From assembly GCA_030603385.1 (NCBI GenBank), contig JAUVXW010000036.1, positions 1-46,498 on the forward strand: a stretch of 46,498 nucleotides of DNA, written 5' to 3'. The DNA is from Promethearchaeota archaeon. GTDB lineage: Archaea; Asgardarchaeota; Lokiarchaeia; Sigyniarchaeales; SOKP01. Below are positions 32,736 through 44,921 of this stretch, in pieces. Position numbers and translations under genes: made by a program. Every line of letters begins with the position of its first letter. The stretch's first letter is position 1. The notes under the pieces were generated by a model. The model had not been told where the DNA came from. It saw nothing but the letters and a program-made list of their open reading frames with translations, and did no database searches.

Positions 32736-34136
32736 TTACTTATCTGGATTTTCGACAATATTCTTTAAAGGTTTAACCATTTCTGTTTTTATATTAGCAT
32801 AAAACTGTTTTCTAAATTCTTCATTGTTTTCAATTAAGGGTATAAGCATATCATTCATTTTTTTTGCGTTTTTATCATTTTGAGGAAACGTGTCATATAA
32901 ACCATGTTGCTCGTAGTACTTATCATCTGCCCTAAAAATAAATTTAAGTCGGCTAAAAACAGCATCTCTGAAAAGCAATTCAGCGCCTTTACTAAGATAA
33001 GTATGAGTTTGAACATAATTGGAGTTTGAAAATCTAATTGATTGGGTTGCAAAATTTTGTAAGAGTGAGTCGATCTCCTCTGAAGTTCCATATTCATCAG
33101 TAATAAAATCAATAACATTAGATCCCTGGGATTCAGAGTACGCTGAAAAAATTTGTTTAAGATTAGGAATTTGACTTAGGGGTCCAGATATAATGAATCC
33201 AATCTGCTTATCCATCAATGTTGGCACATGATTATTAAAAAAACTCCTATCAAAAACCATTTTCCATCTTGATGATAAATACCTGTCTCTTATATTTCCC
33301 GCAAACACTATAATATCTGATTTTCTTACTTTTTCATCCCAAACTTCCATAAAATCATCTTTCTCCTTGTAGACACATTGATTATCATAACCGCACTGAA
33401 TACAACCTAAACATCCTCCCTTGATATCAATATCATTAATATTAATAACATCCGTTTTCCCAGAAAATGCTATACGAAATCTCTTAATCATCTTGCCTAG
33501 GTTTGTTTCTTCATCCAGGGAATCCGTAAGGATAAGAATTTTTTTACCTTCTGTGTCAATTTTGTTTTCATCACTTACTTTCCCTTTTGGTAAATAATTA
33601 AATTCACGAGGGTTTAAGTTTCGAAAATGCTTTGAAGTTGGAACATTGTTTTCAATAACATAGAAAAAATTTTCCGCGAATGATATTAATCTGTCTCTCT
33701 CTTCAGGTATCATCAAATCACTTGAATCAGCAGAAAAACTGTTAATATATTTCATTTCAAGATCTTCTGATATTGCTCGTAAATAATTATGGGAGGTATG
33801 ATCAAAGTAATGAATTGATGTCGTAAGAGACACAACATATTTATCTTTGAAAGCGCTTTCAACATTTCTTTCTTTGATAAGCTCAATAAACCGCTTATAT
33901 TGAGAAGGAACAAGGCAATAATATACAGGAGTCCCCCAAATTATTCCATCAGATGCTTGAACTTCATTTATAATATCTTGAAATTTTTCTTGGTTTTTTT
34001 CAATCTTCTTAATTTGTTGAGATATATTTATGATTTTAAGTGTGTGCTGAGGGAATTTTTTTTGGATATATAACACATATTGCATTGTAGTACTTTCCTC
34101 ACCCTTAGGACTTCCATTTAAAACTACAATTTGCAT
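32736..34136 (-). CDS. Tandem flavodoxin-fold iron-sulfur flavoprotein / NADPH-dependent FMN reductase
   Basis: 'LNGSPKG' and 'GTPVY' in the first domain. The second domain carries the 'GCLGCIQC....CVY..DD' ISF motif. Confidence 0.85.
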   Translation of the reverse strand: MQIVVLNGSPKGEESTTMQYVLYIQKKFPQHTLKIINISQQIKKIEKNQEKFQDIINEVQASDGIIWGTPVYYCLVPSQYKRFIELIKERNVESAFKDKYVVSLTTSIHYFDHTSHNYLRAISEDLEMKYINSFSADSSDLMIPEERDRLISFAENFFYVIENNVPTSKHFRNLNPREFNYLPKGKVSDENKIDTEGKKILILTDSLDEETNLGKMIKRFRIAFSGKTDVININDIDIKGGCLGCIQCGYDNQCVYKEKDDFMEVWDEKVRKSDIIVFAGNIRDRYLSSRWKMVFDRSFFNNHVPTLMDKQIGFIISGPLSQIPNLKQIFSAYSESQGSNVIDFITDEYGTSEEIDSLLQNFATQSIRFSNSNYVQTHTYLSKGAELLFRDAVFSRLKFIFRADDKYYEQHGLYDTFPQNDKNAKKMNDMLIPLIENNEEFRKQFYANIKTEMVKPLKNIVENPDK

Positions 34137-34325: not shown

Positions 34326-34562
34326 TTATTTTACTGCTTCAAAATAGATATACCACTGCTCATCATCTTCAATGAACTCTGTTCCTAAATGTTTATGCTT
34401 AGTTTTAGCTAAATCACGTGGAACAGATTCGCTTGCTGGTTTGTAGTCTGTTATTACTTTTAACACTGTACCAGGTCTCATTTTCATGAGTTGCTTTTTC
34501 GTCTTTAAAGCTGGTATAGGGCAAACAGAGCCACAAACATTTAATTCCATATTAAATTTCAT
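34326..34562 (-). CDS. tusA: Sulfur carrier protein TusA (distal copy)
   Basis: 'LNVCGSVCPIP..KTKK' and 'LKVITD'. Confidence 0.9.
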   Translation of the reverse strand: MKFNMELNVCGSVCPIPALKTKKQLMKMRPGTVLKVITDYKPASESVPRDLAKTKHKHLGTEFIEDDEQWYIYFEAVK

Positions 34563-34595
34563 AATTTTTTACCTCTTGGTAAATATTTAGTTTTT

Positions 34596-37067
34596 TTATT
34601 CGCAAATTAAAGTAAAAATTGGTTCTTGCATTCCTGGATCAACCTTCATCTCGACTTGCATTAATTGGGTTAATCGAAGGGCTTCATATCGTACTTTTTT
34701 AGGTTCTAGCTTTAAATTTTGTGCCATATCGCTAATTGTTGTTGGTCCTTGAAGTGTAATATAATCTAAAATCTGTTGCCTTGGAGTTTTTTCAAAAGTT
34801 AAGAGCTCTCGTTTTGATTTAAGATTAATTGCTTTATTTAATTCTTCCTCGTTTACTTCCCCTTCTTCAAATAAACCATTTTTAATAGCAGTCTCTACAA
34901 TCTCCTTCCCTTTATCAGTCCATACTACCACAGTTGTGTACCCTTTTTGAGATCCAACTTCACCCGCCGTTAAATCAGAATAAATAGCAGGAAAATCTTG
35001 ACAGTGAGAACAGAAATGATTACAACTCAAACACCTGCGTGCCTCTTGTATAGCCATTTCTTCATCAAACATTTGATCGATTTCTTCAAAACTCCAAGCA
35101 ATTTCTTCAGTGGCATCTTCTAGTGTTTCTGGTTTTGGTGAATAATCTTTTGGTGGTTTCTTAAGACCTCTAAAAAACATTTTATCTTGTTTAAACCTCC
35201 CTTCAATTAAACTATCACCTTTAAGATATCTGTCAATTGAAATTGCGGCTTCTTTTCCATGTGCAATTGCCGCGATTGCCACTGCTTTCGAGTTATTAAT
35301 TATATCACCTCCAGCAAATACTCCTGGAATGTTCGTTTCAAATGTGACTTCATTTACTCTAATCTTGTTGCGTTCTTTTTCCAATTTATTGTTAGTAGCA
35401 ATATCAATTTGATCAAAATCTACAGCTTGTCCAACCGCAATTACTATAGAATCAATCGGAATTTCATAATCTGAACCTTTAACTTTATTTAATGGTTTTC
35501 TTCCAGTTTCGTCAGGAGATCCCCATTCAATTTTATAACAATTTAACACTAATTTTTCATCATCACTCTGAGTAATTTTAGATGTTGAAGTAGTGAAGTG
35601 ATATTCCATAAATTCAATTTCATTTTCAGGGATTTCTTTTATTACTAATTCAAGCTGTTCTTCAGACATAATATCAACAAAGTGAACTTTACTAGCACCT
35701 AATCTGAGAGCTGTTTGGGCAACATCGACTGCAACCGGACCCCCACCAATTATCCCTAACGTTTTTCCTTTGAATTCTTCTTTATTTTCCCAGTACCGGT
35801 ATTTTCTATCCATAAGAAACTTAATTGCAACATGTACATTAGGAAGATCTTCTCCTTCTAGGTGTAATGTTCGAGGTTTATATTGACCAGTAGCTATGAA
35901 AATTGCTTCAAATCCATCGTTTTTTAAGTCGTCAATAGTCATATCTGGTCCTAATGGTGTGTTAAGAACAATTTCGACCCCAGAGTTTTTTATCATATTT
36001 ACATCATAATCTAATACATAGTTTGGTAATCTAAATTGTGGAACTCCGAATCTTAGCATTCCTCCTGTTTGATCTGATTTTTCAAAAATAGTTGGTGCAT
36101 AACCCATTCTTTTCAAAAAGTATCCTGCTGTCAATCCAGCTGGTCCGGACCCAATAATTGCGACCTTTTTTGCATTCTTTTTAGTTTTACTCTTAGATTT
36201 TGAATCAATCTTTTTCGATTGTTCAATTTCCCATTCGGTAACAAATTTCTTTAATTCCCGAATTGCTACAGGATGATCATCTCCAATTAGTGTACATGCA
36301 TGCTCGCATTCATTTGTACAAATTCTCCCACAAATGGAAGGAAGTGGATTGTTTTCTCGAATTAATTCTACTGCCTCTTGATATTGTCCCTGTCTTATTA
36401 GAGAAATATAACCTTGGGCGTTTACACCTGAGGGACAACCACTACAACAAGGAGAACATACTAAGCCCCGATCAGTTTGCTCGGTTCGCATATGAGAGTT
36501 ACAAAATAAGCCAATTTTTAGTATATCTCGATTCATTTCATCTTCCAATTCAGCGGCACCTCGCATCTCACATGGAACACCTACAATCCCCACTGGTTCG
36601 AAAGTTTCTCCGACTAAATCTACTAATTTTTCTAGAACTCCTGAGCGACCATAGACAACCCCTGCTTTTTGTATAACATCATCAGGATCAGAAACAATAT
36701 TTGCTTGAGGTTTTTCCTCAACATCTTGGACCAATACAATTTCGGCAAGTGATTGGGTCTCTAATAAATTCTTTGCTAATGTGGTGACAACACCACCGTT
36801 TGCCGCTTTTGCTAATATTTCAGGATTTTTGCTTCTTAATGAATAAATAGCTTTTGGTTGCTTTTGCTCAAATTTTTTCTGAATAACCTGCGGGCAACCC
36901 TGGTAGCATTTACCACAATCTTGTCCGTCTCTTTCAAGAATACAATAATCTTTTATTGTTGGGCGTAGAATATCCATTTCTATGTGCTTACACGATCCAA
37001 CACATAGTCCACATCCTTGACACAATCCAGCATTAATAATCTCTTTCCTCAATAATTCAAAACTCAT
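34596..37067 (-). CDS. FrhB/FdhB-family F420-binding subunit with nested GltD/SudA-like NAD(P)H oxidoreductase module and C-terminal wHTH
   Basis: In order: 2x[4Fe-4S]; FrhB motifs 'NGGVVT', 'VGVPC' and 'IGLFC'; then 'CPSGVN...ICGRICTNECE', GSGPAG, GGGPVA and 'EARRCLSC'; then the FrhB tail 'CSHCQDF...DLTAGEVGS..GYTTVVV.TDKG'; then an HTH. Confidence 0.85.
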   Translation of the reverse strand: MSFELLRKEIINAGLCQGCGLCVGSCKHIEMDILRPTIKDYCILERDGQDCGKCYQGCPQVIQKKFEQKQPKAIYSLRSKNPEILAKAANGGVVTTLAKNLLETQSLAEIVLVQDVEEKPQANIVSDPDDVIQKAGVVYGRSGVLEKLVDLVGETFEPVGIVGVPCEMRGAAELEDEMNRDILKIGLFCNSHMRTEQTDRGLVCSPCCSGCPSGVNAQGYISLIRQGQYQEAVELIRENNPLPSICGRICTNECEHACTLIGDDHPVAIRELKKFVTEWEIEQSKKIDSKSKSKTKKNAKKVAIIGSGPAGLTAGYFLKRMGYAPTIFEKSDQTGGMLRFGVPQFRLPNYVLDYDVNMIKNSGVEIVLNTPLGPDMTIDDLKNDGFEAIFIATGQYKPRTLHLEGEDLPNVHVAIKFLMDRKYRYWENKEEFKGKTLGIIGGGPVAVDVAQTALRLGASKVHFVDIMSEEQLELVIKEIPENEIEFMEYHFTTSTSKITQSDDEKLVLNCYKIEWGSPDETGRKPLNKVKGSDYEIPIDSIVIAVGQAVDFDQIDIATNNKLEKERNKIRVNEVTFETNIPGVFAGGDIINNSKAVAIAAIAHGKEAAISIDRYLKGDSLIEGRFKQDKMFFRGLKKPPKDYSPKPETLEDATEEIAWSFEEIDQMFDEEMAIQEARRCLSCNHFCSHCQDFPAIYSDLTAGEVGSQKGYTTVVVWTDKGKEIVETAIKNGLFEEGEVNEEELNKAINLKSKRELLTFEKTPRQQILDYITLQGPTTISDMAQNLKLEPKKVRYEALRLTQLMQVEMKVDPGMQEPIFTLICE

Positions 37068-37069
37068 GT

Positions 37070-38305
37070 TTATCCCTCTCTAATTTTTATTTCTTTAATA
37101 ATTCCTTCAGAATCTATGCTGTATTCTACTGAACCGTTTTTATAGGTTCCTTCAACCACTTCAAAAATTTGGGTTTTATATTCCTCAAAATTATCCTCTT
37201 CATTTATTTTTGATTTGAACCCACCAAAAAATACGTTTGACAAATTCATATTTCCCGCAATCTGACGAATTTCTTCAGTGATTTCCTTATATTGTTTCGC
37301 GTCTTCTTTTTCAATTGCTTCGTGCAATTTTTCTTCTAATTTTAGCAAATCTTCTCGATATTTCCTTGTTTGTTCACTAATCTCGATTTGATTAGCTTTT
37401 TCATATGATTCAATTATTTTAAGAGTGAATGAAATTGATTTATCGCCTCCTAAAAGGCCTGTAATTAATGGTAATTCTTCAATTAATCTTCCAGTAAATA
37501 AATCTTCTAATAAAGTACCTGAAGATGGAATTCTTCCTTTAGGTAAACCAGAGGTAGTTAATGTAAATCTAAAGAAATTTCCAATAATATCTGGTAAACT
37601 TCTTGTTACATCATCATCTTCGTCAGCTAACTTATCTGTTGCTCCTTTAACAGAGTGTTCTGTAGCAACTTCAATGTTTCCCATGAGTGTTCCAAACATG
37701 CCAAGCATACGGATTCCTGGTCTTTCAACTAATTGCTTACAACCTCTACATGGTGTATTATAGTCAATACATCGTTCTTTGCATTCTCGAGAGACAAACC
37801 CATTGCACAGAAACCCTAAGTCATTAAAACAAGTTTCCTCATCTTCAAGTTCAATTTGACGATGTACCTTATCTAAGTATTCACATGTTGCCCTTCGAGT
37901 ACATAAATCACATAGCTTTTTTGGCTTCATTAACTCTTCTCCATTAATCACTGATTTTAATTCATTAACTTCTCCTAAACAACCTTCAATTTCAATTATA
38001 TCGTCAATTAAACCCTTTAGAGGCGTTATTTCATGTCCATGCTGGTTTGCTAAAGCAAAAACTCCACCAGAAACAGTGCAACTACCATAAGCGATAACTT
38101 TATTTGCCTTAGATCTTATCTTACTGAGCAATTCTTTATCAGTTGGGAGTACATAGCCTGTTATTACAGCTGTTTCTATTTTTTCTTCTTTCCACTTTTT
38201 AGGTTCTGAGATGAATTCAACATTATACTCTGAATCTAACTTTAACAATAATGATTCATTAAAACATTTATTACAACCATTAAATTGAAAAATTTTAACA
38301 TCCAT
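37070..38305 (-). CDS. MvhG/FrhG-like [NiFe]-hydrogenase small-subunit homologue with ~200-aa C-terminal extension
   Basis: 'GCNKC', 'AYGSC..GG', 'EGC' and distal 'CDLC..CF..GFLC.G...C...C..PCRGC'. Confidence 0.8.
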   Translation of the reverse strand: MDVKIFQFNGCNKCFNESLLLKLDSEYNVEFISEPKKWKEEKIETAVITGYVLPTDKELLSKIRSKANKVIAYGSCTVSGGVFALANQHGHEITPLKGLIDDIIEIEGCLGEVNELKSVINGEELMKPKKLCDLCTRRATCEYLDKVHRQIELEDEETCFNDLGFLCNGFVSRECKERCIDYNTPCRGCKQLVERPGIRMLGMFGTLMGNIEVATEHSVKGATDKLADEDDDVTRSLPDIIGNFFRFTLTTSGLPKGRIPSSGTLLEDLFTGRLIEELPLITGLLGGDKSISFTLKIIESYEKANQIEISEQTRKYREDLLKLEEKLHEAIEKEDAKQYKEITEEIRQIAGNMNLSNVFFGGFKSKINEEDNFEEYKTQIFEVVEGTYKNGSVEYSIDSEGIIKEIKIREG

Positions 38306-38747
38306 CTTTTATCGTACCCTCTTCTTTAATTGCTGTTGATAACCTATCTACTATATCTTCAAAATCTCCTACTGCCGTTTCACCTTCAGCAGCCCTAGAA
38401 GTGTATTGATTGACAAATTGATCACTATATCCCAATTCTTTAAACAATTTTTTCATCAATTTTATTCTGTGCATTGATAAAACATTTCCATTAAAAAAAT
38501 GACAAGCACCTAAACAGCATCCAACACATGCAACAGCATCAGCACCATTATTTAATGCATCCATAATTTGTATAGGACCAATTTGACCCGTACATTGAAC
38601 TCGTATAATTCTAATTGCGGGATCATAACCCATTCGAGCAACACCTGCAGTATTAGCAGAACCTTGACCACATTCGTTACACATGAAAACTACTAGATTT
38701 TGAATTTTATCTTGAATGTTTTCATCTATAGTTTCATAATCGCTCAT
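38295..38747 (-). CDS. mvhD: MvhD [2Fe-2S] subunit
   Basis: 'FMCNEC', 'IRVQCTG' and 'GCCLGACHF.NGN'. ATG 38747 overlaps the hdrA stop (ATGA). Confidence 0.93.
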   Translation of the reverse strand: MSDYETIDENIQDKIQNLVVFMCNECGQGSANTAGVARMGYDPAIRIIRVQCTGQIGPIQIMDALNNGADAVACVGCCLGACHFFNGNVLSMHRIKLMKKLFKELGYSDQFVNQYTSRAAEGETAVGDFEDIVDRLSTAIKEEGTIKDGC

Positions 38748-40774
38748 TCGCAAACAGCACCTCCGCCAGAAACGGCGACTATTTCATCTAGTAATTGATC
38801 ATCACTAAAATTTATTAATTGAATTGCCCCTGTAGGACAAACGGGCATACACATTCCACAAGATTTACACGCAATCTCATTTACAGTAGGTATTCCATTT
38901 TTATCAATATCAATCGCTGCCGGGGCACAAACAGTTTTACAAAGACCACAATTTACACATAAATCATAATCTATGGAAGGAACTAACATTTCTTTTTCAA
39001 TATATCCTTTCACTAAAGGAGCAGCTGCTAAAGCGGCAGCACTTCCAGCATGAGCAACCGTCTCAGAGATGTCTTTAGGTCCTTGAATTGTGCCGGCTAG
39101 GAAAATACCTCCCTTACTACTTAAAGTAGGATTCATTTTTATATGAAATTCTTTTAAAAAGCCCTCCTGTGATCTCAGAACATGAAGTTTAGAGCCAAGT
39201 GGACCAATTCCTTCAGGGGGGACCATAGCAGCAGAAAGTACAACCATATCAGCTTTTAATTGTAAGGGGGTCTGACTTAATGTGTCTTCAACAATTACTC
39301 TTAACTCTCCCGAAATGGGGTCTCTAACAATTTCAGATGGCCTTCCTCGAATAAATCTAACTCCAATTTCCTGAGCAGATTTGTATAATTCTTCAAAGTT
39401 TAATCCTGGAGTTCTTATATCAATATAACATATTGTTACATCAGTATCAGGATACATTTCTTTAATAATTCTGGCATTTTTGATAGCAAACTTACAACAT
39501 ACTCCAGTACAATATTTATTGCCCACTTGGTCGTTTCTACTTCCTACACATTGGATTATAACAACACTTTCTGGAATTTTTCCATCAGAGGGTCTTAGTA
39601 CTTGACTATTAGTAAGTGAAGTAGGAGATAACATTCTCTCTAGTTTCAATTGAGTAATTACATCTTCATATCCTTCTTGTCCATAATGATAAGGTTCAAT
39701 CTCAGAAGGATTATACTCCTTATATCCCGCAGCAACAATTATTGAGCCAACCTTTACGGTCTTGGTCTCAGATTCCATAGAGAAATCAATTGCTTGAACT
39801 GGGCATATATTTATACAAGTATTGCATTCTATACAAGTCTTTTTATCTCTCACATATGTAGCGGGTATTGCTTGAGGATAGGCTTTGTAAATAGCATTCC
39901 TCATTGACATCCCCATATCCCATTCACTTGGTACTTCCACAGGACAGTGTTCCGCACATTCACCACAAGAAGTACAATTATCTTTAACATACCTTGGTTT
40001 TATTTCAATTTCAACCTCGAAATTACCTAATGAACCTTCAACGCTTTTAACTTGAGCGTTAGTATAAAGCTCTATTAATGGATGGTTAGCAACACCATTC
40101 GTAAGTGGAGAAATTGAACACTGTGGACATTCTAAAGTTGGGAATGTTTTGTTTAAGCGTGTCATATGACCTCCTATAGTAGATTCCTTTTCCACTAGAA
40201 ATACTGGGATTCCCAATTCCGCCATATCATAAGCTGATCGAAGGCCAGCGATTCCAGCACCAATAACTAATGCTGCCTTAGTCGTTGGGATTCTTCTTGT
40301 TTCGACATCTTCTAATTTCCTTGATCGATTTACTCCTGCTTCAACAAGTCTCATAGCTTTTTGAGTTGCTTTCTCTTTGTCTTTTTGATGAACCCAACTA
40401 TCGTACTCTCTCACATTAACCTGCTGATGACGATGTCTGTTCAATCTCATTTCTTCAATTGCTTTTGCAAAAGTTTTCCCATGTTGGTTTTTAGAGCATG
40501 AAGCAACTACAGTCCTATTGACTCCAAGTTCCTCGATAGAATCTTTAATCATTTGAACTCCTGGCTTAGAACACATAAACATATAGTGTTCTGCTTTTAC
40601 TACATTTGGTAATGTTGATGCATATTCCGCAACTTTAGCAACGTCCACAGTTCCGGCAATGTTGTGTCCACAGTGACACACGAATACACCTATTCGTGGT
40701 TCTTCGCTTTCCTCAGTTTCAACCTTTTCCCCTAAACCTTCGGTCTCTTTAACTTTTCCTTCTTTTACAGTCAA
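38744..40774 (-). CDS. hdrA: Heterodisulfide reductase subunit A (flavin-based bifurcating)
   Basis: 'IGVFVCHCGHNIA', GAGIAG, 'KTFPTLECPQC', 'QCVGSR...YCTGVCC', 'GPKDI' and ferredoxin motifs. Confidence 0.97.
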   Translation of the reverse strand: MTVKEGKVKETEGLGEKVETEESEEPRIGVFVCHCGHNIAGTVDVAKVAEYASTLPNVVKAEHYMFMCSKPGVQMIKDSIEELGVNRTVVASCSKNQHGKTFAKAIEEMRLNRHRHQQVNVREYDSWVHQKDKEKATQKAMRLVEAGVNRSRKLEDVETRRIPTTKAALVIGAGIAGLRSAYDMAELGIPVFLVEKESTIGGHMTRLNKTFPTLECPQCSISPLTNGVANHPLIELYTNAQVKSVEGSLGNFEVEIEIKPRYVKDNCTSCGECAEHCPVEVPSEWDMGMSMRNAIYKAYPQAIPATYVRDKKTCIECNTCINICPVQAIDFSMESETKTVKVGSIIVAAGYKEYNPSEIEPYHYGQEGYEDVITQLKLERMLSPTSLTNSQVLRPSDGKIPESVVIIQCVGSRNDQVGNKYCTGVCCKFAIKNARIIKEMYPDTDVTICYIDIRTPGLNFEELYKSAQEIGVRFIRGRPSEIVRDPISGELRVIVEDTLSQTPLQLKADMVVLSAAMVPPEGIGPLGSKLHVLRSQEGFLKEFHIKMNPTLSSKGGIFLAGTIQGPKDISETVAHAGSAAALAAAPLVKGYIEKEMLVPSIDYDLCVNCGLCKTVCAPAAIDIDKNGIPTVNEIACKSCGMCMPVCPTGAIQLINFSDDQLLDEIVAVSGGGAVCE

Positions 40775-40775
40775 G

Positions 40776-41693
40776 TTAAATTACCTCCTCTTCTTTTTCT
40801 AATTCTTCTCCCCCAAAAATATACTCTCTACCCATTAATTGATATTGAAGACCAATAAAATCTTGATCCATACCCATACAATAGGCAGTAAGTTGGGAAA
40901 GATGAATAACTGGATAATCATAATTACAACTTTTATTTTTGTTTAGATAATCTTGACCTGTCTCATATTGTAGATGACAAAATGGACAAATATCAAGTAT
41001 AAAATCTGGTTTCACTTCATCAATATTCTTCATTTTTTCAGCAAATATTGCCATACTTGCGTTTCCATCATATGCTTTAACCCCGCCTCCAGCTCCACAG
41101 CAAGTAAGTTGTTCTTTAAATTTAACTGATTCTATTCCTAATACTTCAATAAATTCCTCTACAATTGTTGGTCCTTCTGAACTTTCAATCTCTCTAATTC
41201 TAGTTGGTTTTAGGAAATGACAGCCATAATGAATTGCTGCTCTAGCATTTACTTTTCGAACGATATGATCTTCAATTCCCCATGGTCCGATTTCATAACC
41301 TAAGACTTCAGCTATATGTCTCACATCAATCGTTCCCTTAAACTCGTAATCGCCAATAAGTTTCAATTTTTCATTTACCATAACTCGATGTTCCTCGTTT
41401 GCTTTCAAATGTTTATTGACTTCTTGAAGTGTGCCAAAACATCCATTACATACAGTCAAAATATCGGCATCTAACTTTTCCGCTATGCACAAATTTCTTG
41501 CTGCTGCTACCATCCAATCAACCTTATTAAAAGATCGAAATACTCCTGGAGCTGGGCAACATGTTGCTCTCTCCATATCTAAGAGTTCGTATCCCAATTT
41601 TTCCATTACAAATTTTGTTGATTTTTCAATAGCAGGATATCGATTTGGCATCAAACACCCTAAAAAGAAAGCAAATGTGTTTTCTTTAACCAT
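40776..41693 (-). CDS. hdrB: Heterodisulfide reductase subunit B
   Basis: Two CCG domains: FLGC..CCPAPG..CNGC and HYGCH..CCGAGG..CPFCHLQ. Confidence 0.97.
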   Translation of the reverse strand: MVKENTFAFFLGCLMPNRYPAIEKSTKFVMEKLGYELLDMERATCCPAPGVFRSFNKVDWMVAAARNLCIAEKLDADILTVCNGCFGTLQEVNKHLKANEEHRVMVNEKLKLIGDYEFKGTIDVRHIAEVLGYEIGPWGIEDHIVRKVNARAAIHYGCHFLKPTRIREIESSEGPTIVEEFIEVLGIESVKFKEQLTCCGAGGGVKAYDGNASMAIFAEKMKNIDEVKPDFILDICPFCHLQYETGQDYLNKNKSCNYDYPVIHLSQLTAYCMGMDQDFIGLQYQLMGREYIFGGEELEKEEEVI

Positions 41694-41696
41694 TTT

Positions 41697-42254
41697 TTAC
41701 GCCTCCTCCTCTTCCTTTTTTTCCTCCTTAACTGGAGGTAAATCAAACATATGTTCCTCAAAATTTTTTAAATCTTTATCATCCCCCTCCTGTTTAAATT
41801 TAAACGCAGTAGGAGGCAATTCTTCTAATCCTAATTCGACTCTTCGTTTTTTTACCTCATCATTTATAGGTACCGCATGTCCAAAATTCTTCAAATAACC
41901 TACTACAGCCCTATGATTAGGAGAGATGTTTCCTAATTTAGTCGCATAATTTCGCAACTCCATAATTACATCTGTAGGTCTTACATCACGAGGACATCGT
42001 TCATAACATTGATAACATGTTGTACAGAGCCAAATGTCTGGATCTTTTAATACCGATAAATCTCCCAAGACAACTTTTCTAATAATAGATCGAGTTTTTA
42101 AAGCAGTCCATCTACCACTCTCACAACTTGCTGTACACGTACCGCATTGGATGCACTGCCAAATATTTGATTTTCTTTCAATATTTTTAAAAAATTCTTT
42201 ATCAAAATCTTCGTCTGTTTTATATTCCCTTGCTTGTTCTTCTACATCAGACGT
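41697..42254 (-). CDS. hdrC: Heterodisulfide reductase subunit C (probable ACG start)
   Basis: The frame extends upstream of 42068 through CIQCGTCTASC to ACG at 42254, which directly follows an in-frame TAA. SD GGTGA at 42265-42261. The second cluster is CTTCYQCYERCP. Confidence 0.92.
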   Translation of the reverse strand, partial: TSDVEEQAREYKTDEDFDKEFFKNIERKSNIWQCIQCGTCTASCESGRWTALKTRSIIRKVVLGDLSVLKDPDIWLCTTCYQCYERCPRDVRPTDVIMELRNYATKLGNISPNHRAVVGYLKNFGHAVPINDEVKKRRVELGLEELPPTAFKFKQEGDDKDLKNFEEHMFDLPPVKEEKKEEEEA

Positions 42255-42308
42255 TTATCATCACCTTTTTTGAAATTTAAAATAAAAAAAAAAAAAATTT
42301 GTTTTAAT

Positions 42309-42740
42309 TTATAATGAAACTATTCTGCCACCGTTACTCATTTCTAAAAATGCAGCAGCACCAACAGGATCTTCAACCCAATCAAGTAAATCTTCTCTTT
42401 TTATCCTCATTAAATCCATGGTCATTTGACATGGATATAATTTCATATTTCCGTTTTCGACAGCATCCTTAATCATTGCCCATGGATCTTCAATACCGAA
42501 TTTTTTCATTCTTTTTAAAAATATTTTTGCACCCATCCCTTTCATTGGAAAAGGCATACCTGCAACTTTTGGTTTAAACTTCTTAGTTAGAAGATTTAAA
42601 CCCCAAAAAGTAAAGAAAAAATTCATTTTAGTATCCATAGCGTCACCTGTTGTTCCAAGGAGCATCATCATTGCGAACTTTTCGAATGATTTGTCCTTTA
42701 CAATAAAATTTATTGTTTCTGTTTCAGCCACATATACCAC
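42309..42740 (-). CDS. DsrE2/DrsE_2-family sulfurtransferase
   Basis: 'FFTFWGL', 'YPCQMTMDLM' and 'VGAAAFL'. The true start may be GTG 42731. Confidence 0.88.
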   Translation of the reverse strand: MVYVAETETINFIVKDKSFEKFAMMMLLGTTGDAMDTKMNFFFTFWGLNLLTKKFKPKVAGMPFPMKGMGAKIFLKRMKKFGIEDPWAMIKDAVENGNMKLYPCQMTMDLMRIKREDLLDWVEDPVGAAAFLEMSNGGRIVSL

Positions 42741-42846
42741 CTTCTATTTTTTTTTGTTATTCTTTTTTTTGTTTAATACTAACTTTTTCCTGGTATTAAC
42801 CAGATTTTTTCAAAAATCTTTTTATATTAATTTTTTTTCCTTCAAA

Positions 42847-43188
42847 CTACATCCAAGAAATAACCTTTGGAGTAGCATCTATAAAATCTATAAGATCATC
42901 GTATTCTATAGATTTAATTTTATTATGAACTAATTCTGGAGCTATTCCACGAGCCTTTATATCTGACTTCATCGCAAATACAGCAATATCTAAATCGAGG
43001 AGTTCTTCCATTTGTTTTGGTATTTTTCCCTTTGTTGAGATACCTATTACACCATCTTGAATTAAAACTAATCCAAGCTTAGTGTTCTTTTTGATTTGAC
43101 TTTTTAAAAGGGGTAGTAATCTTCTTAAATGATTCCCTGTCAATCCACTAAATCCAAACAAATATATCATATCAAGATTTTCTGTCAT
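42847..43188 (-). CDS. dsrH: DsrH/TusB-like subunit
   Basis: 'LIQDGV', 'DIKARG' and terminal 'VISW'. Confidence 0.88.
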   Translation of the reverse strand: MTENLDMIYLFGFSGLTGNHLRRLLPLLKSQIKKNTKLGLVLIQDGVIGISTKGKIPKQMEELLDLDIAVFAMKSDIKARGIAPELVHNKIKSIEYDDLIDFIDATPKVISWM

Positions 43189-43204
43189 TATTTTCTACCC
43201 TCCA

Positions 43205-43573
43205 TTAAAATCTAAAGCTTGTATCGGCATTGGCAATTAACTCTGTTAAATCGTCATAATTGATGATTTTCAAGTTTTCATACTCAACTAAGTCTTCTTT
43301 TGTTATTCCCGCCTCATTTAAAGCAGATTCAATTAGATATACTTCTAAATCAGATAAATCTGCCATTTCTAATACCTCTGTCAAAGGATCCATTCCAACT
43401 GCTTCCGGATTGCAATACTTATTAAACAAATAAACAGCATCACCCGTTAATACAACTTTACAGTCAATAATTTCTCCTAGAGCTGTGAATCCTGAGCCAA
43501 TCCTTATTGCCTCAATTGCTGAATTTCTCCCTATAGGTGATTGGTCACTTATTACTACTACTGATTCTATCAT
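43205..43573 (-). CDS. dsrF: DsrF/TusC-like subunit
   Basis: 'SPIG...EAIR', 'GDAVY' and terminal 'ADTSFRF'. It lies between dsrE and dsrH. Confidence 0.85.
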   Translation of the reverse strand: MIESVVVISDQSPIGRNSAIEAIRIGSGFTALGEIIDCKVVLTGDAVYLFNKYCNPEAVGMDPLTEVLEMADLSDLEVYLIESALNEAGITKEDLVEYENLKIINYDDLTELIANADTSFRF

Positions 43574-43576
43574 GAT

Positions 43577-43945
43577 TTAACCTCCAGTTCCAAATACTAA
43601 TAATTTATCCGCTTCTATTGCCCAATTTGAAAAATCTCCTAATCCCTCTTCAGTCGCACCTTCAATGAATTCTGACTCTTTTAACCCAGTTATGCTAACC
43701 CATGTACTACAGCCAGCAACTGGAATGCTATTATCCTTGCTAAATTGTTCGATTTTCTCTGGGATGTTGCGAATAGACGTTCCACAGCTTATATCCTTTT
43801 TAAGATTATATACTCCTGTACCAAAGAAAAATATGCCCCTAATTTCATGCCCCTTTCTAATCGCAGCTTTACCTATTTCGATCAGCGAATCAACTGCTTG
43901 ATATTTGTAAGGTTCTGTGCTAATAAAGAAAACATATTTGGACAT
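43577..43945 (-). CDS. dsrE: DsrE/TusD-like sulfurtransferase subunit
   Basis: 'PY', 'GHEIRGIFFFGTGV', catalytic-position Cys in 'AGCSTW' and 'GLG....AIEADKLLVF'. Confidence 0.88.
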   Translation of the reverse strand: MSKYVFFISTEPYKYQAVDSLIEIGKAAIRKGHEIRGIFFFGTGVYNLKKDISCGTSIRNIPEKIEQFSKDNSIPVAGCSTWVSITGLKESEFIEGATEEGLGDFSNWAIEADKLLVFGTGG

Positions 43946-43973
43946 AGTATCTCCAAACTCCGTTTTATAGGTT

Positions 43974-44207
43974 TTAACCCTTCTTAATGATAAAAATTAA
44001 ATTTCCATTGTCTTCCTTGAGTTCGACTAATTCATCACCGATCTTATTTAAAAGAGCGGGAATATCCTTTTTTGCTCCAACATCGTCAACAATTACCTCA
44101 ATGACTTGACCAGAACTTAAGTTTTTTAATTCCTTCTTAGTTTTCAATACTGGCATAGGACACTTCAATCCAGTATAATCAAAGGTTTTATCAGCCATTT
44201 TTTTCAA
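43974..44207 (-). CDS. tusA: Sulfur carrier protein TusA (proximal copy; ATG at 44198)
   Basis: 'DYTGLKCPMPVLKTKK' and 'VDDVGAKKDIP'. Confidence 0.95.
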   Translation of the reverse strand: MKKMADKTFDYTGLKCPMPVLKTKKELKNLSSGQVIEVIVDDVGAKKDIPALLNKIGDELVELKEDNGNLIFIIKKG

Positions 44208-44249
44208 CTTTTTTAGTTTTTTTGTATGTTTTTTATTTACATTTTATAA

Positions 44250-44369
44250 GTGATTTATTCTTAAATATCACAAATACAAAGTCTTATTTAAAGTTAAAGT
44301 ACATAATATAAAAATACTTCGAGAAAAAAACACATATCATAATAGACCCTTTTAAATAAATATCACAAA
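44250..44369. promoter_or_regulatory. Divergent promoter region with 13-bp direct repeat TAAATATCACAAA (44262, 44357)
   Basis: The exact repeat is seen directly. The first copy is part of a GTGAT-N12-ATCAC inverted repeat. It lies between tusA and the Lrp gene. Confidence 0.5.
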
Positions 44370-44456
44370 CAAAAAGTTTAAATTAACTTTTACATATAAA
44401 TAGATAGGAGTCAAAAAAACTCTAAATAACGAAACATATATTTCATAAATATTGCT

Positions 44457-44921
44457 ATGACAGAAATTGTAGAACTTGACCAAAAAGATAAGCAGATACT
44501 AACAATCTTACAATCGAATGCTAAAGCATCATTACGTGACATAGAAAGTGTTACTGATTTAAGTACAACTTCGATCCGTATGCGAATTAATAGATTAAAA
44601 GAAAAAAAAATAATAAAACAATATCTTACATTAATTGATTGTCGTTATTTGGGCTATCGTGAAATGGTTATGGCGTCATTGAGAGTTAATTCTTCATATC
44701 CTATGGAAGATGTTAAGAGAAAGATTGAGGATATGGATAAAATTAAATACGCTTACGTAATTACGGGGGAATACCCTTTATTCATTATGGCAAAATGTTT
44801 AAATCATCAAGATTCTATGAGTCTTATTGAAAATTTAAGAAACCTTCCAGGAATAAAGGAAGTGAAGACGCAAATAGTCTTAGATAGAATTAAAGAAGAT
44901 CCCACTATAATCATTCCTTGA
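44457..44921 (+). CDS. Lrp/AsnC family transcriptional regulator
   Basis: 'LDQKDKQILTILQSNAKASLRDI...RINRL' HTH plus a RAM domain 'ITGEY'. Confidence 0.93.
   Translation: MTEIVELDQKDKQILTILQSNAKASLRDIESVTDLSTTSIRMRINRLKEKKIIKQYLTLIDCRYLGYREMVMASLRVNSSYPMEDVKRKIEDMDKIKYAYVITGEYPLFIMAKCLNHQDSMSLIENLRNLPGIKEVKTQIVLDRIKEDPTIIIP

Follow-up and report, generated by a model that had tools for sequence, protein, structure and literature searches.

A heterodisulfide reductase gene cluster with a vestigial hydrogenase subunit is linked to TusA and DsrE-family sulfur carrier genes in Asgard archaea

What heterodisulfide reductase (Hdr) complexes reduce in organisms without coenzyme M or coenzyme B is a long-standing question, for Asgard archaea as well as for many other anaerobes. 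HdrA2B2C2 of Methanosarcina acetivorans is reportedly an F420H2-dependent, bifurcating complex. The HdrABC-MvhAGD complex of hydrogenotrophic methanogens (structures 5ODC, 8RVU, and 9SFI) combines full-length HdrA with HdrB, HdrC, MvhD, a three-cluster MvhG-type subunit and the large subunit MvhA, and in the Elp-Hdr complex, described for Methanothermobacter under nickel limitation, a truncated FdhA, an FrhB-type subunit and an MvhD homologue feed electrons from F420H2 to Hdr (PMC12350162). In sHdr-LbpA sulfur oxidation, an Hdr-like complex is tied to the sulfur transferases TusA and DsrE3/DsrE2 (PMC11094781, PMC4175335), and a 2025 preprint on another Asgard archaeon, Nerearchaeum marumarumayae, draws, in a figure legend, an Hdr reducing TusA/DsrE-bound persulfides (bioRxiv 10.1101/2025.07.22.663070). 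Here, we describe a cluster of 12 genes on contig JAUVXW010000036.1 of a Promethearchaeota archaeon (assembly GCA_030603385.1), in which the genes of a methanogen-type Hdr are linked to genes for TusA- and DsrE-family sulfur carriers. The window, i.e., the whole stretch of DNA analysed (46,498 nucleotides, nt), is an entire contig (C57) of a 3.89-Mb assembly in 58 contigs, which is 94% complete and 7% contaminated with ~31% G+C. The host belongs to the Asgard archaea, as judged by its Ras-family GTPase genes and by the names of its closest relatives (Promethearchaeota, Lokiarchaeota).

The 12 genes were found on the minus strand (34326-44207) in the order tusA1-dsrE-dsrF-dsrH-dsrE2-hdrC-hdrB-hdrA-mvhD-X-Y-tusA2, and every gene was confirmed by Pfam and NCBIfam matches. 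The co-oriented genes and the divergent lrp gene that a first-pass annotation of the DNA had listed were thus recovered at their coordinates. From hdrC to Y the genes are separated by gaps of 1-3 nt or overlap by 10-11 nt, and most carrier genes are spaced by 3-33 nt; the widest gaps lie upstream of dsrE2 (106 nt) and in front of hdrC (54 nt). No gene for MvhA, DsrAB, DsrC, Mcr or a GcvH-like protein was found in the window, in line with the earlier annotation for the first four. We give about an even chance to the reading that the cluster encodes a bifurcating reductase which takes electrons from F420H2/NAD(P)H and reduces sulfane sulfur bound to the carriers. The observations behind it are the gene content, the domain architecture, the decay of the hydrogenase, the conserved linkage, and the altered coenzyme B site. 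A soluble flavin-based bifurcating complex would be formed by HdrABC-MvhD, an iron-sulfur (Fe-S) wire consisting of MvhG fused to a dead MvhA, and an FrhB::NfnB flavoprotein; its donor would be F420H2 and/or NAD(P)H, not H2, and its high-potential acceptor would be sulfane sulfur or a disulfide on the co-encoded TusA, DsrEFH and DsrE2 proteins.

Of all systems compared, HdrABC-MvhAGD of hydrogenotrophic methanogens was the closest sequence match, and the cluster shares with it the full-length HdrA, HdrB, HdrC, MvhD, and the three-cluster MvhG-type subunit. HdrB matched the solved methanogen HdrB proteins with E-values of 1e-88 to 1e-90 (1e-90 for 9SFI chain C) and 300-307 bits, and the best other full-length representative among 1.8 billion proteins reached 250 bits. 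By an approximate hand count, HdrB showed ~47% identity (131/277 positions) to HdrB of Methanothermococcus thermolithotrophicus; the list of its homologues was filled by Asgard sequences down to 63% identity. Both HdrB (363.5 bits compared to a cut-off of 345.15; TIGR03288) and HdrC (176 bits compared to 160; TIGR03290) scored above the equivalog thresholds of the coenzyme B-coenzyme M Hdr models. Residues 24-665 of HdrA were collinear with residues 2-646 of 5ODC chain A (E 2e-191), which identifies a full-length HdrA, and the short sHdrA structure 6TJR matched residues 339-587 only. HdrA and MvhD aligned end to end with the fused HdrA2 model (NF040770; 732 and 100 bits), the best NCBIfam model, and MvhD matched the MvhD-like tail of HdrA2 as well as VhuD. 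Compared to HdrA2B2C2 of M. acetivorans, HdrA and MvhD are separate proteins here, additional wire and flavoprotein subunits are encoded, and the host is not a methanogen. On these matches HdrA, HdrB and HdrC are assigned to the methanogen type, as the first-pass annotation had it.

In the Hdr of M. thermolithotrophicus (2026 study), the backbone of Gly46 and Gly198 holds the sulfonate of coenzyme M, Arg201 contacts the carboxylate of coenzyme B, and Arg14 and Arg240 contact its phosphate (PMC13261682). These five positions fall on Arg or Gly residues of 5ODC chain B in the alignment and are thus residues of HdrB. In 15 cluster HdrB sequences, Arg14 and the glycines equivalent to Gly46 and Gly198 were kept. 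The position of Arg201 was occupied by Lys in 12 sequences, by Arg in two and by Leu in one, and that of Arg240 was Thr or Gly in all 15. The predicted coenzyme B anchoring site is consistently altered in cluster HdrB. A complex prediction of HdrB and HdrC with TusA2 (alignments A3, A2, and A1) scored 0.01 compared to a mark of 0.32 and gave no verdict. The nearest HdrB paralogues in the genome were at most 40% identical to the cluster HdrB. The genome shows a general expansion of Hdr genes: HdrA-like paralogues number ~10 in full-length form, with additional split ones, at least 14 genes are MvhD-like, and Hdr parts are spread over contigs C6, C10, C18, C20, C25, C26, C36, C46, C47, and C55, with a tandem array on C26 alone.

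Gene X had been called mvhG-like, and its first ~255 residues were indeed shown to match MvhG (phmmer E 6e-17; Foldseek top match 5ODC chain E), with 12 Cys residues invariant in 16 sequences, enough for three Fe-S clusters. However, the gene proved to be a fusion with a remnant of MvhA. A profile of its C-terminal ~155 residues could be aligned with a [NiFe] large subunit encoded in the same genome (residues 56-115; hhalign 91%, E 9e-7), and in gene X the nickel-binding R-x-C-G-x-C motif is replaced by Cys-free residues. When a model of this domain (predicted local distance difference test score 91) was searched with Foldseek, almost all of the 15 best matches were [NiFe] large subunits or homologues from complex I; the match covers part of the fold (template modelling score up to 0.58 over ~140 columns) and the E-values are weak (0.06-0.2). 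Pfam NiFeSe_Hases was not matched in the C-terminal part of the 16 gene X members at E-values up to 1, and the remnant is visible only by profile-profile and fold comparison. Thus, gene X encodes MvhG followed by a Cys-free large-subunit remnant of ~150 residues, and the hydrogenase is dead; the cluster is hydrogenase-less, as had been proposed. MvhA encoded elsewhere had been named as a possible partner, and two real [NiFe] large subunits do exist in the genome (C20 and C31), but each is paired with a neighbouring small subunit of its own. What the complex consists of, and that it does not depend on H2, are both well supported.

Gene Y, described in the first-pass annotation as a fusion of FrhB and GltD, was confirmed as such by structure matches. 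Residues ~180-685 matched NfnA, NfnB, GltD, and related structures (E down to 6e-90), and residues 3-175 and 686-749 matched FrhB and the FrhB-like part of the F420-dependent sulfite reductase (Fsr-N). In a distant family of the phylum, the corresponding gene encodes an unsplit FrhB-like protein of 356 residues with the same N-terminal ferredoxin motif and a C-terminal winged helix, which aligned to residues 1-194 and 686-811 of gene Y; the NAD(P)H module was thus inserted at a single point. In GCA_021498095, gene Y is reduced to the N-terminal ferredoxin part and the winged helix (142 residues). The donor module therefore varies between loci, with X, MvhD and HdrABC fixed. Since CofH (454 bits compared to a cut-off of 374) and CofE were found in the genome, F420 is plausibly made by the host, and the electron donor would be F420H2 and/or NAD(P)H, received by the predicted flavoprotein Y.

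These features separate the cluster from HdrABC-MvhAGD, in which MvhA is not a stub of ~150 residues fused to MvhG and devoid of metal ligands, and electrons are not supplied by a flavoprotein; in addition, sulfur carrier genes are attached to the cluster, Arg240 is lost, and neither Mcr nor ComA was found in the genome. Elp-Hdr may be regarded as the closest described analogue of the input arm and as a precedent for a truncated subunit combined with an FrhB-type donor. In both systems, a cofactor-less truncated scaffold, an FrhB/FdhB-type flavoprotein and an MvhD homologue adjoin HdrABC without a hydrogenase. However, the scaffold here consists of MvhG and MvhA rather than of truncated FdhA (ElpA), an NfnB/GltD module is nested in FrhB, which also has a winged helix, and the acceptor is presumably not the heterodisulfide of coenzymes M and B (CoM-S-S-CoB). 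With sHdr-LbpA the cluster shares the genetic linkage of an Hdr complex to TusA and DsrE-family carriers of protein-bound sulfur. Neither the layout hdrC1B1A-hyp-hdrC2B2, nor a short HdrA without ferredoxin domains, nor lipoate-binding proteins, nor the oxidative character of sHdr are features of the cluster, which contains single hdrC, hdrB and hdrA genes with a full-length HdrA; the earlier distinction from sHdr was correct. Full-text literature searches found no description of this cluster. The earlier view that the arrangement is undescribed holds for the cluster itself, but the idea of an Hdr acting on TusA/DsrE-bound persulfide appears in the figure legend of the N. marumarumayae preprint (bioRxiv 10.1101/2025.07.22.663070). 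A group 3c [NiFe] hydrogenase is named there as the donor, and the accessible part of the preprint does not mention a gene cluster, a dead hydrogenase fusion or an FrhB::NfnB protein. All modules of the cluster are of known kinds; their combination and the remodelled input arm are new.

The Hdr-carrier linkage was found in ~30 Asgard loci, including that of the cultured Lokiarchaeum ossiferum. A scan with gene X detected 13 species-level Asgard metagenome-assembled genomes (MAGs), and all sufficiently long contigs showed the identical order, including the divergent lrp. The arrangement is not due to chance, because the whole order recurs in these 13 MAGs and in further genomes. Identities in the 13 MAGs were 75-96% for the Hdr subunits, MvhD and TusA2, and down to 31-60% for DsrEFH. 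The cluster was also present, in the same order, in two complete genome records with identical HdrB, one of them CP104013.1 (L. ossiferum, with the cluster at ~2.416-2.427 Mb), and in a further closed genome of the same taxonomic order (G143). The lrp gene accompanies the cluster in all complete relatives; it is divergently oriented in the closest family, and in L. ossiferum and related genomes it separates dsrE2 from hdrC. Most genomes of the home family that contain both dsrE2 and X have the two co-oriented at a distance of 4.4-5.3 kb, and the exceptions were mostly at contig ends. Seven genomes of the distant family carry gene X at 33-40% identity in the order hdrC-hdrB-hdrA-mvhD-X-frhB-tusA2-dsrE-dsrF-dsrH...tusA1, with a further DsrE-family gene ahead of hdrC. 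This rearranged order keeps the carriers with hdr, and the linkage has thus outlasted rearrangement; loss of synteny in relatives, which the first-pass annotation had considered able to overturn its view, was not observed. In every complete variant except one, tusA2 directly follows the input-module gene; in the exception (L024) it is located upstream of hdrC on the opposite strand. The tusA2 gene is conserved as strongly as the Hdr subunits (53-96% identity over 16 loci), and dsrH is the least conserved gene of the cluster (28-39% identity in distant relatives). There is strong comparative evidence for a functional coupling of Hdr to the carriers.

Gene X was present in 79 out of 400 species genomes of the phylum, with 63/134 in the home family and 31/53 in the home genus; several of the 22 congeneric species without it have 99% complete genomes. 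Such a patchy distribution is in keeping with an accessory metabolic trait. Two genomes (L037, G189:C1; L041, G240:C156) have lost the entire block from hdrC to Y by natural deletion; in one of them the carrier operon stops at a dsrE2 truncated at residue 122, and in the other dsrE2 is directly joined to the last 38 codons of tusA2. Such clean deletions are consistent with the patchy distribution and with a build from two modules. The cluster of gene X homologues in the Atlas database was all archaeal and mostly from Promethearchaeota. Gene X was also found at 86% identity in a genome assigned to another family of the phylum (G073:C137:4539-5771), which suggests a mis-binned contig or a recent transfer. 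In a quick maximum-likelihood tree, the 15 cluster HdrB sequences and P0149, an unlabelled library representative that groups with the distant family, formed one clade (SH-like approximate likelihood ratio test value 99), and five HdrB paralogues of this genome fell outside it. Two contexts of non-clade HdrB were looked at: a TPR fusion on a short contig and a classical hdrACB-mvhDGA set with a real large subunit. The latter, the nearest non-clade context of the two (hdrA-hdrC-hdrB-mvhD-mvhG-mvhA), is a plausible ancestor of the cluster arrangement.

For the sulfur carriers, the CP(M)P motif of TusA1 was invariant in relatives and the CPxP cysteine of TusA2 was also kept. The Cys at the position of DsrE/TusD Cys78 was kept in 10 out of 10 aligned DsrE sequences, DsrF contained one invariant Cys near residue 38 and DsrE2 one invariant Cys, and no conserved Cys was found in 11 DsrH sequences. 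DsrE reached 49.8 bits with the TusD model TIGR03012 (cut-off 89), DsrF 33 bits with the TusC model TIGR03010 (cut-off 94), and DsrE2 50 bits with NF047629 (cut-off 210); the TusB-like DsrH, at 49.4 bits with a cut-off of 49.2, was marginally the sole carrier to reach its equivalog threshold. The best NCBIfam match of TusA2 was the selenium-metabolism protein YedF (36 bits, below cut-off). The cluster thus shares the CPxP TusA, the DsrE/F/H triplet and the Cys78 equivalent with the TusA-TusBCD-TusE-MnmA and TusA-DsrEFH-DsrC-DsrAB relays. Unlike in these relays, TusE/DsrC, MnmA and DsrAB were not found in the genome, DsrH is Cys-free, and DsrE and DsrF fall well short of the TusD and TusC equivalog cut-offs.

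The search of the genome gave no match for the DsrC/TusE family, the NIR_SIR sulfite reductase or McrA. ComA was not found in the same search, which did not extend to the cysteate route to coenzyme M or to coenzyme B synthesis; ComB was represented by a sub-threshold 24-bit fragment with a stop codon, and MnmA by PP-loop matches of 21-26 bits, none of them a true MnmA. At 94% completeness, these genome-wide negatives mean that the genes were not found and are not proven absences; within this limit, they agree with the reading of the first-pass annotation. Elsewhere in the genome, Pfam detected two divergent tusA-yeeE-dsrE-dsrF-dsrH sets (C31, L035 5937-9446, plus strand; C10, L036 6928-9291, minus strand), the first of which is followed by an AIRS-family, SelD-like gene. 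Both sets look like the DsrEFH type linked to YeeE/TusA that has been reported from sulfate reducers, and are candidates for the uptake of thiosulfate, related compounds or selenium. Three GcvH-like genes were located on other contigs.

The first-pass annotation had treated the genes as one operon. The 54-nt gap between dsrE2 and hdrC contains a run of 14 T on the coding strand, which suggests two transcription units. At this junction, a co-oriented lrp gene is inserted in L. ossiferum as well as in two further genomes, and the natural deletions extend from here to the middle of tusA2. The spacer is probably a boundary between two transcription units. Parts of the cluster are covered by contigs (90-95% alike) from the RNA libraries of a single study; these contigs establish neither a single transcript nor its level, and the parts that they leave uncovered carry no meaning. 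One of 1,893 nt from a relative extends from hdrC over the T-run through dsrE2, dsrH and dsrF into dsrE, a weak hint of read-through in that relative. Near-identical DNA was detected in marine-sediment, cold-seep, and subsurface metagenomes from at least 10 studies. In hdrC, the first ferredoxin Cys motif lies 5′ of any ATG, GTG or TTG codon, so that the open reading frame (ORF) from a canonical start is a truncated form; the frame begins with TAA-ACG behind GGTGA at 42254. In a comparison with L004, L007, L008, L013, and L010, the position of the ACG codon was ACG in five genomes (this one and four other species) and ATG in L010. The opening of hdrC may be either a non-canonical ACG start or some form of coupling. 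A four-codon mini-ORF starting with ATG overlaps the hdrC start in a different frame.

For a bifurcating reductase of carrier-bound sulfur, the following route may be proposed. Hydride would enter at the FrhB- or NfnB-type flavin, electrons would pass through the three clusters of the MvhG part and the [2Fe-2S] cluster of MvhD to the flavin adenine dinucleotide (FAD) of HdrA, and would be split there, one electron going to ferredoxin. With NADPH or F420H2 as donor and ferredoxin as the other acceptor, the persulfide/sulfide couple, near -200 to -270 mV, could take the high-potential branch of the bifurcation. Sulfur from polysulfide, elemental sulfur (S0), thiosulfate (by way of the YeeE-TusA loci elsewhere in the genome) or cysteine would be loaded on TusA1 and passed via Cys78 of DsrE and via DsrE2 to HdrB, possibly presented by TusA2. 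For a fermentative, syntrophic archaeon, the system would be an outlet for reducing equivalents and would at the same time replenish reduced ferredoxin. That HdrB directly reduces persulfide, that the reaction runs in this direction and that its role is dissimilatory are what we infer from synteny and from the loss of one Arg anchoring coenzyme B; the donor is likewise inferred.

Several observations weigh against this reading, and they bear on the rival explanations. In the main rival, the carriers would serve biosynthetic or assimilatory sulfur mobilisation and feed thiolation (of transfer RNA (tRNA), thiocarboxylate carriers or Fe-S assembly), and Hdr would supply a reducing step, i.e., sulfide release or the resolving of a persulfide or acyl-disulfide, rather than an energy-linked sink. 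TusA and TusBCD are classically proteins of tRNA thiolation. In the variant of GCA_021498095 (L019, JAIZWK010000001.1, 3461-15830), a cysteine desulfurase and a ThiF-type E1 on the opposite strand are embedded among the carriers together with an extra tusA, and an additional dsrE follows tusA2; these genes lean to biosynthetic sulfur transfer, and the 142-residue ferredoxin and winged-helix stub that stands in place of the flavoprotein in this variant also counts against an F420H2/NAD(P)H-driven reductase. The closest paralogue of the cluster Hdr (40-44% identity) leans the same way: it belongs to a second TusA-Hdr neighbourhood in the genome (C36, L034 3082-12875, minus strand), a co-oriented run of thiF, tusA, a ThiI/PP-loop gene with an NFACT-R RNA-binding domain, a small ORF, hdrC, a gene for a protein of 774 residues that matches no family, hdrB, and hdrA. 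However, the cluster is lacking in 22 out of 53 congeneric species, including near-complete genomes, and has been cleanly deleted in others, which would be unexpected for housekeeping thiolation. TusE/DsrC and a true MnmA were not found in the genome search, the carriers score below the TusBCD equivalog cut-offs (TusB marginally above), and a bifurcating complex of ~3,000 residues would be a heavy investment for a trace flux of sulfur. We consider this explanation unlikely. A selenium counterpart, in which the complex would reduce carrier-bound selenium for selenophosphate synthesis, takes its cue from the YedF-like TusA2 and from the SelD-like gene behind the C31 set, but all scores are far below the cut-offs, no SelD was found in or beside the cluster in any locus examined, and the complex is too large in scale for a trace-element pathway, which makes it extremely improbable.

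The separation of the two halves is the basis of another rival, according to which Hdr is an ordinary reductase of a small-molecule heterodisulfide, a low-molecular-weight disulfide or polysulfide, and the tus/dsr genes are a separate operon that is merely adjacent. The T-run and the insertions of lrp part the carriers from hdr, the halves may be transcribed separately, and carrier genes were retained in some genomes after deletion of the hdr block. HdrB and HdrC pass the coenzyme B-coenzyme M equivalog models, Arg14 and the glycines for the coenzyme M sulfonate are kept, which is compatible with a small anionic disulfide as substrate, and methanogen Hdr was shown to tolerate altered substrates (PMC13261682). 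The incompleteness of the genome leaves the absence of the usual acceptors unproven. However, no McrA or ComA was found and the ComB fragment is sub-threshold, none of the cluster HdrB sequences has Arg240, the hdr half nearly always ends with tusA2, and the linkage of tusA2 and dsrEFH to hdr has outlasted rearrangement in the distant family, which mere adjacency does not predict; taken together, this makes a small-molecule reductase quite improbable. Finally, the complex could run in an oxidative, confurcating direction, in which sulfide or a carrier persulfide together with reduced ferredoxin would reduce NADP+ or F420, or in which sulfane sulfur from sulfide would be loaded on the carriers, along the lines of the sulfur-oxidising sHdr. 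Bifurcation of the Hdr type is reversible in principle, sHdr systems are likewise tied to TusA and DsrE proteins (PMC11094781), and the habitats are sulfidic sediments and cold seeps. We judge this direction to be very improbable: the cluster is not of the sHdr type, with a single hdrCBA set and a full-length HdrA that 6TJR matches only in part, it lacks a lipoate-binding protein, no sulfite-forming or -handling enzyme was found, and a high-potential acceptor is not evident in a fermentative anaerobe.

Tentatively, the cluster may be the physiological "heterodisulfide" system that has been missing from Lokiarchaeia and their Asgard relatives, i.e., an F420H2/NADPH-driven bifurcating reductase of protein-bound persulfide with a dedicated TusA/DsrEFH/DsrE2 relay. 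With the genes of the enzyme so firmly tied to those of a set of sulfur carriers, the cluster gives a concrete and testable answer to the question of the Hdr substrate, and its presence in the cultured L. ossiferum makes tests of expression and enzyme activity feasible. If persulfide is indeed reduced, this would be a new cytoplasmic, quinone-free type of sulfur or polysulfide reduction that regenerates reduced ferredoxin, many Asgard archaea of marine sediments and cold seeps would have an unrecognised route from fermentation to sulfide, and Asgard fermentation would be tied directly to the sulfur cycle of hydrogen-sulfur syntrophy models of eukaryogenesis. Besides, the cluster records a stepwise remodelling in which a hydrogenase became a fused wire, after which FrhB acquired an internal NAD(P)H module or was stripped of its flavin core, parallel to the recently found input arm of Elp-Hdr in methanogens. 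The coordinates of all features are listed in Table 1.

Table 1. Features of the cluster, with positions in the window.
Feature	Position	Strand	Basis or remark
lrp, Lrp/AsnC-family regulator	44457..44921	+	Pfam HTH_AsnC-type and AsnC_trans_reg; divergent from tusA1
tusA1, sulfur carrier, CPxP cysteine	43974..44207	-	Pfam TusA E 4e-24; NCBIfam TusA below equivalog cut-off
dsrE (TusD-like), putative active-site Cys in G-C-S/T-T-W	43577..43945	-	Pfam DsrE
dsrF (TusC-like)	43205..43573	-	Pfam DsrE family
dsrH (TusB-like), Cys-free	42847..43188	-	Pfam DsrH
dsrE2-like single-domain carrier, P-C-x-M-T-M cysteine	42309..42740	-	Pfam DrsE_2 E 1.7e-21
dsrE2-hdrC spacer, T14 run and GGTGA ahead of hdrC frame	42255..42308	-	sequence
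hdrC, 2x[4Fe-4S], frame opening at ACG 42254	41697..42254	-	TIGR03290
hdrB, catalytic subunit, two CCG domains	40776..41693	-	Pfam CCG (two stretches); TIGR03288
hdrA, full-length bifurcating flavoprotein, 676 residues	38744..40774	-	collinear with 5ODC chain A
mvhD, [2Fe-2S] connector	38295..38753	-	Pfam FlpD E 3e-31; 10-nt overlap with hdrA
gene X, 411 residues, mvhG fused to vestigial mvhA	37070..38305	-	Pfam Oxidored_q6; MvhG matches
gene Y, 823 residues, frhB split by NfnB/GltD module (NAD(P)H-FAD-2x[4Fe-4S]), C-terminal winged helix	34596..37067	-	Pfam FrhB_N, Fer4_20, Pyr_redox_2, FrhB_C
tusA2, CP(I/V)P and K-T-K-H-K-x-L insertion	34326..34562	-	Pfam TusA E 1e-18

An Rfam scan of the window matched no RNA family. 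In one MAG, a second, inverted dsrE-dsrF-dsrH triplet was found directly after tusA2 (L011, 14041-15139), with 36-51% identity to the first. In the window, a gene for a protein of 466 residues (32736-34136, minus strand) is located on the same strand 189 nt downstream of tusA2. The first ~140 residues of this protein match NADPH-dependent flavin mononucleotide (FMN) reductase and the other ~320 match no family; it is 92% conserved in L007, yet displaced there by 3.7 kb.

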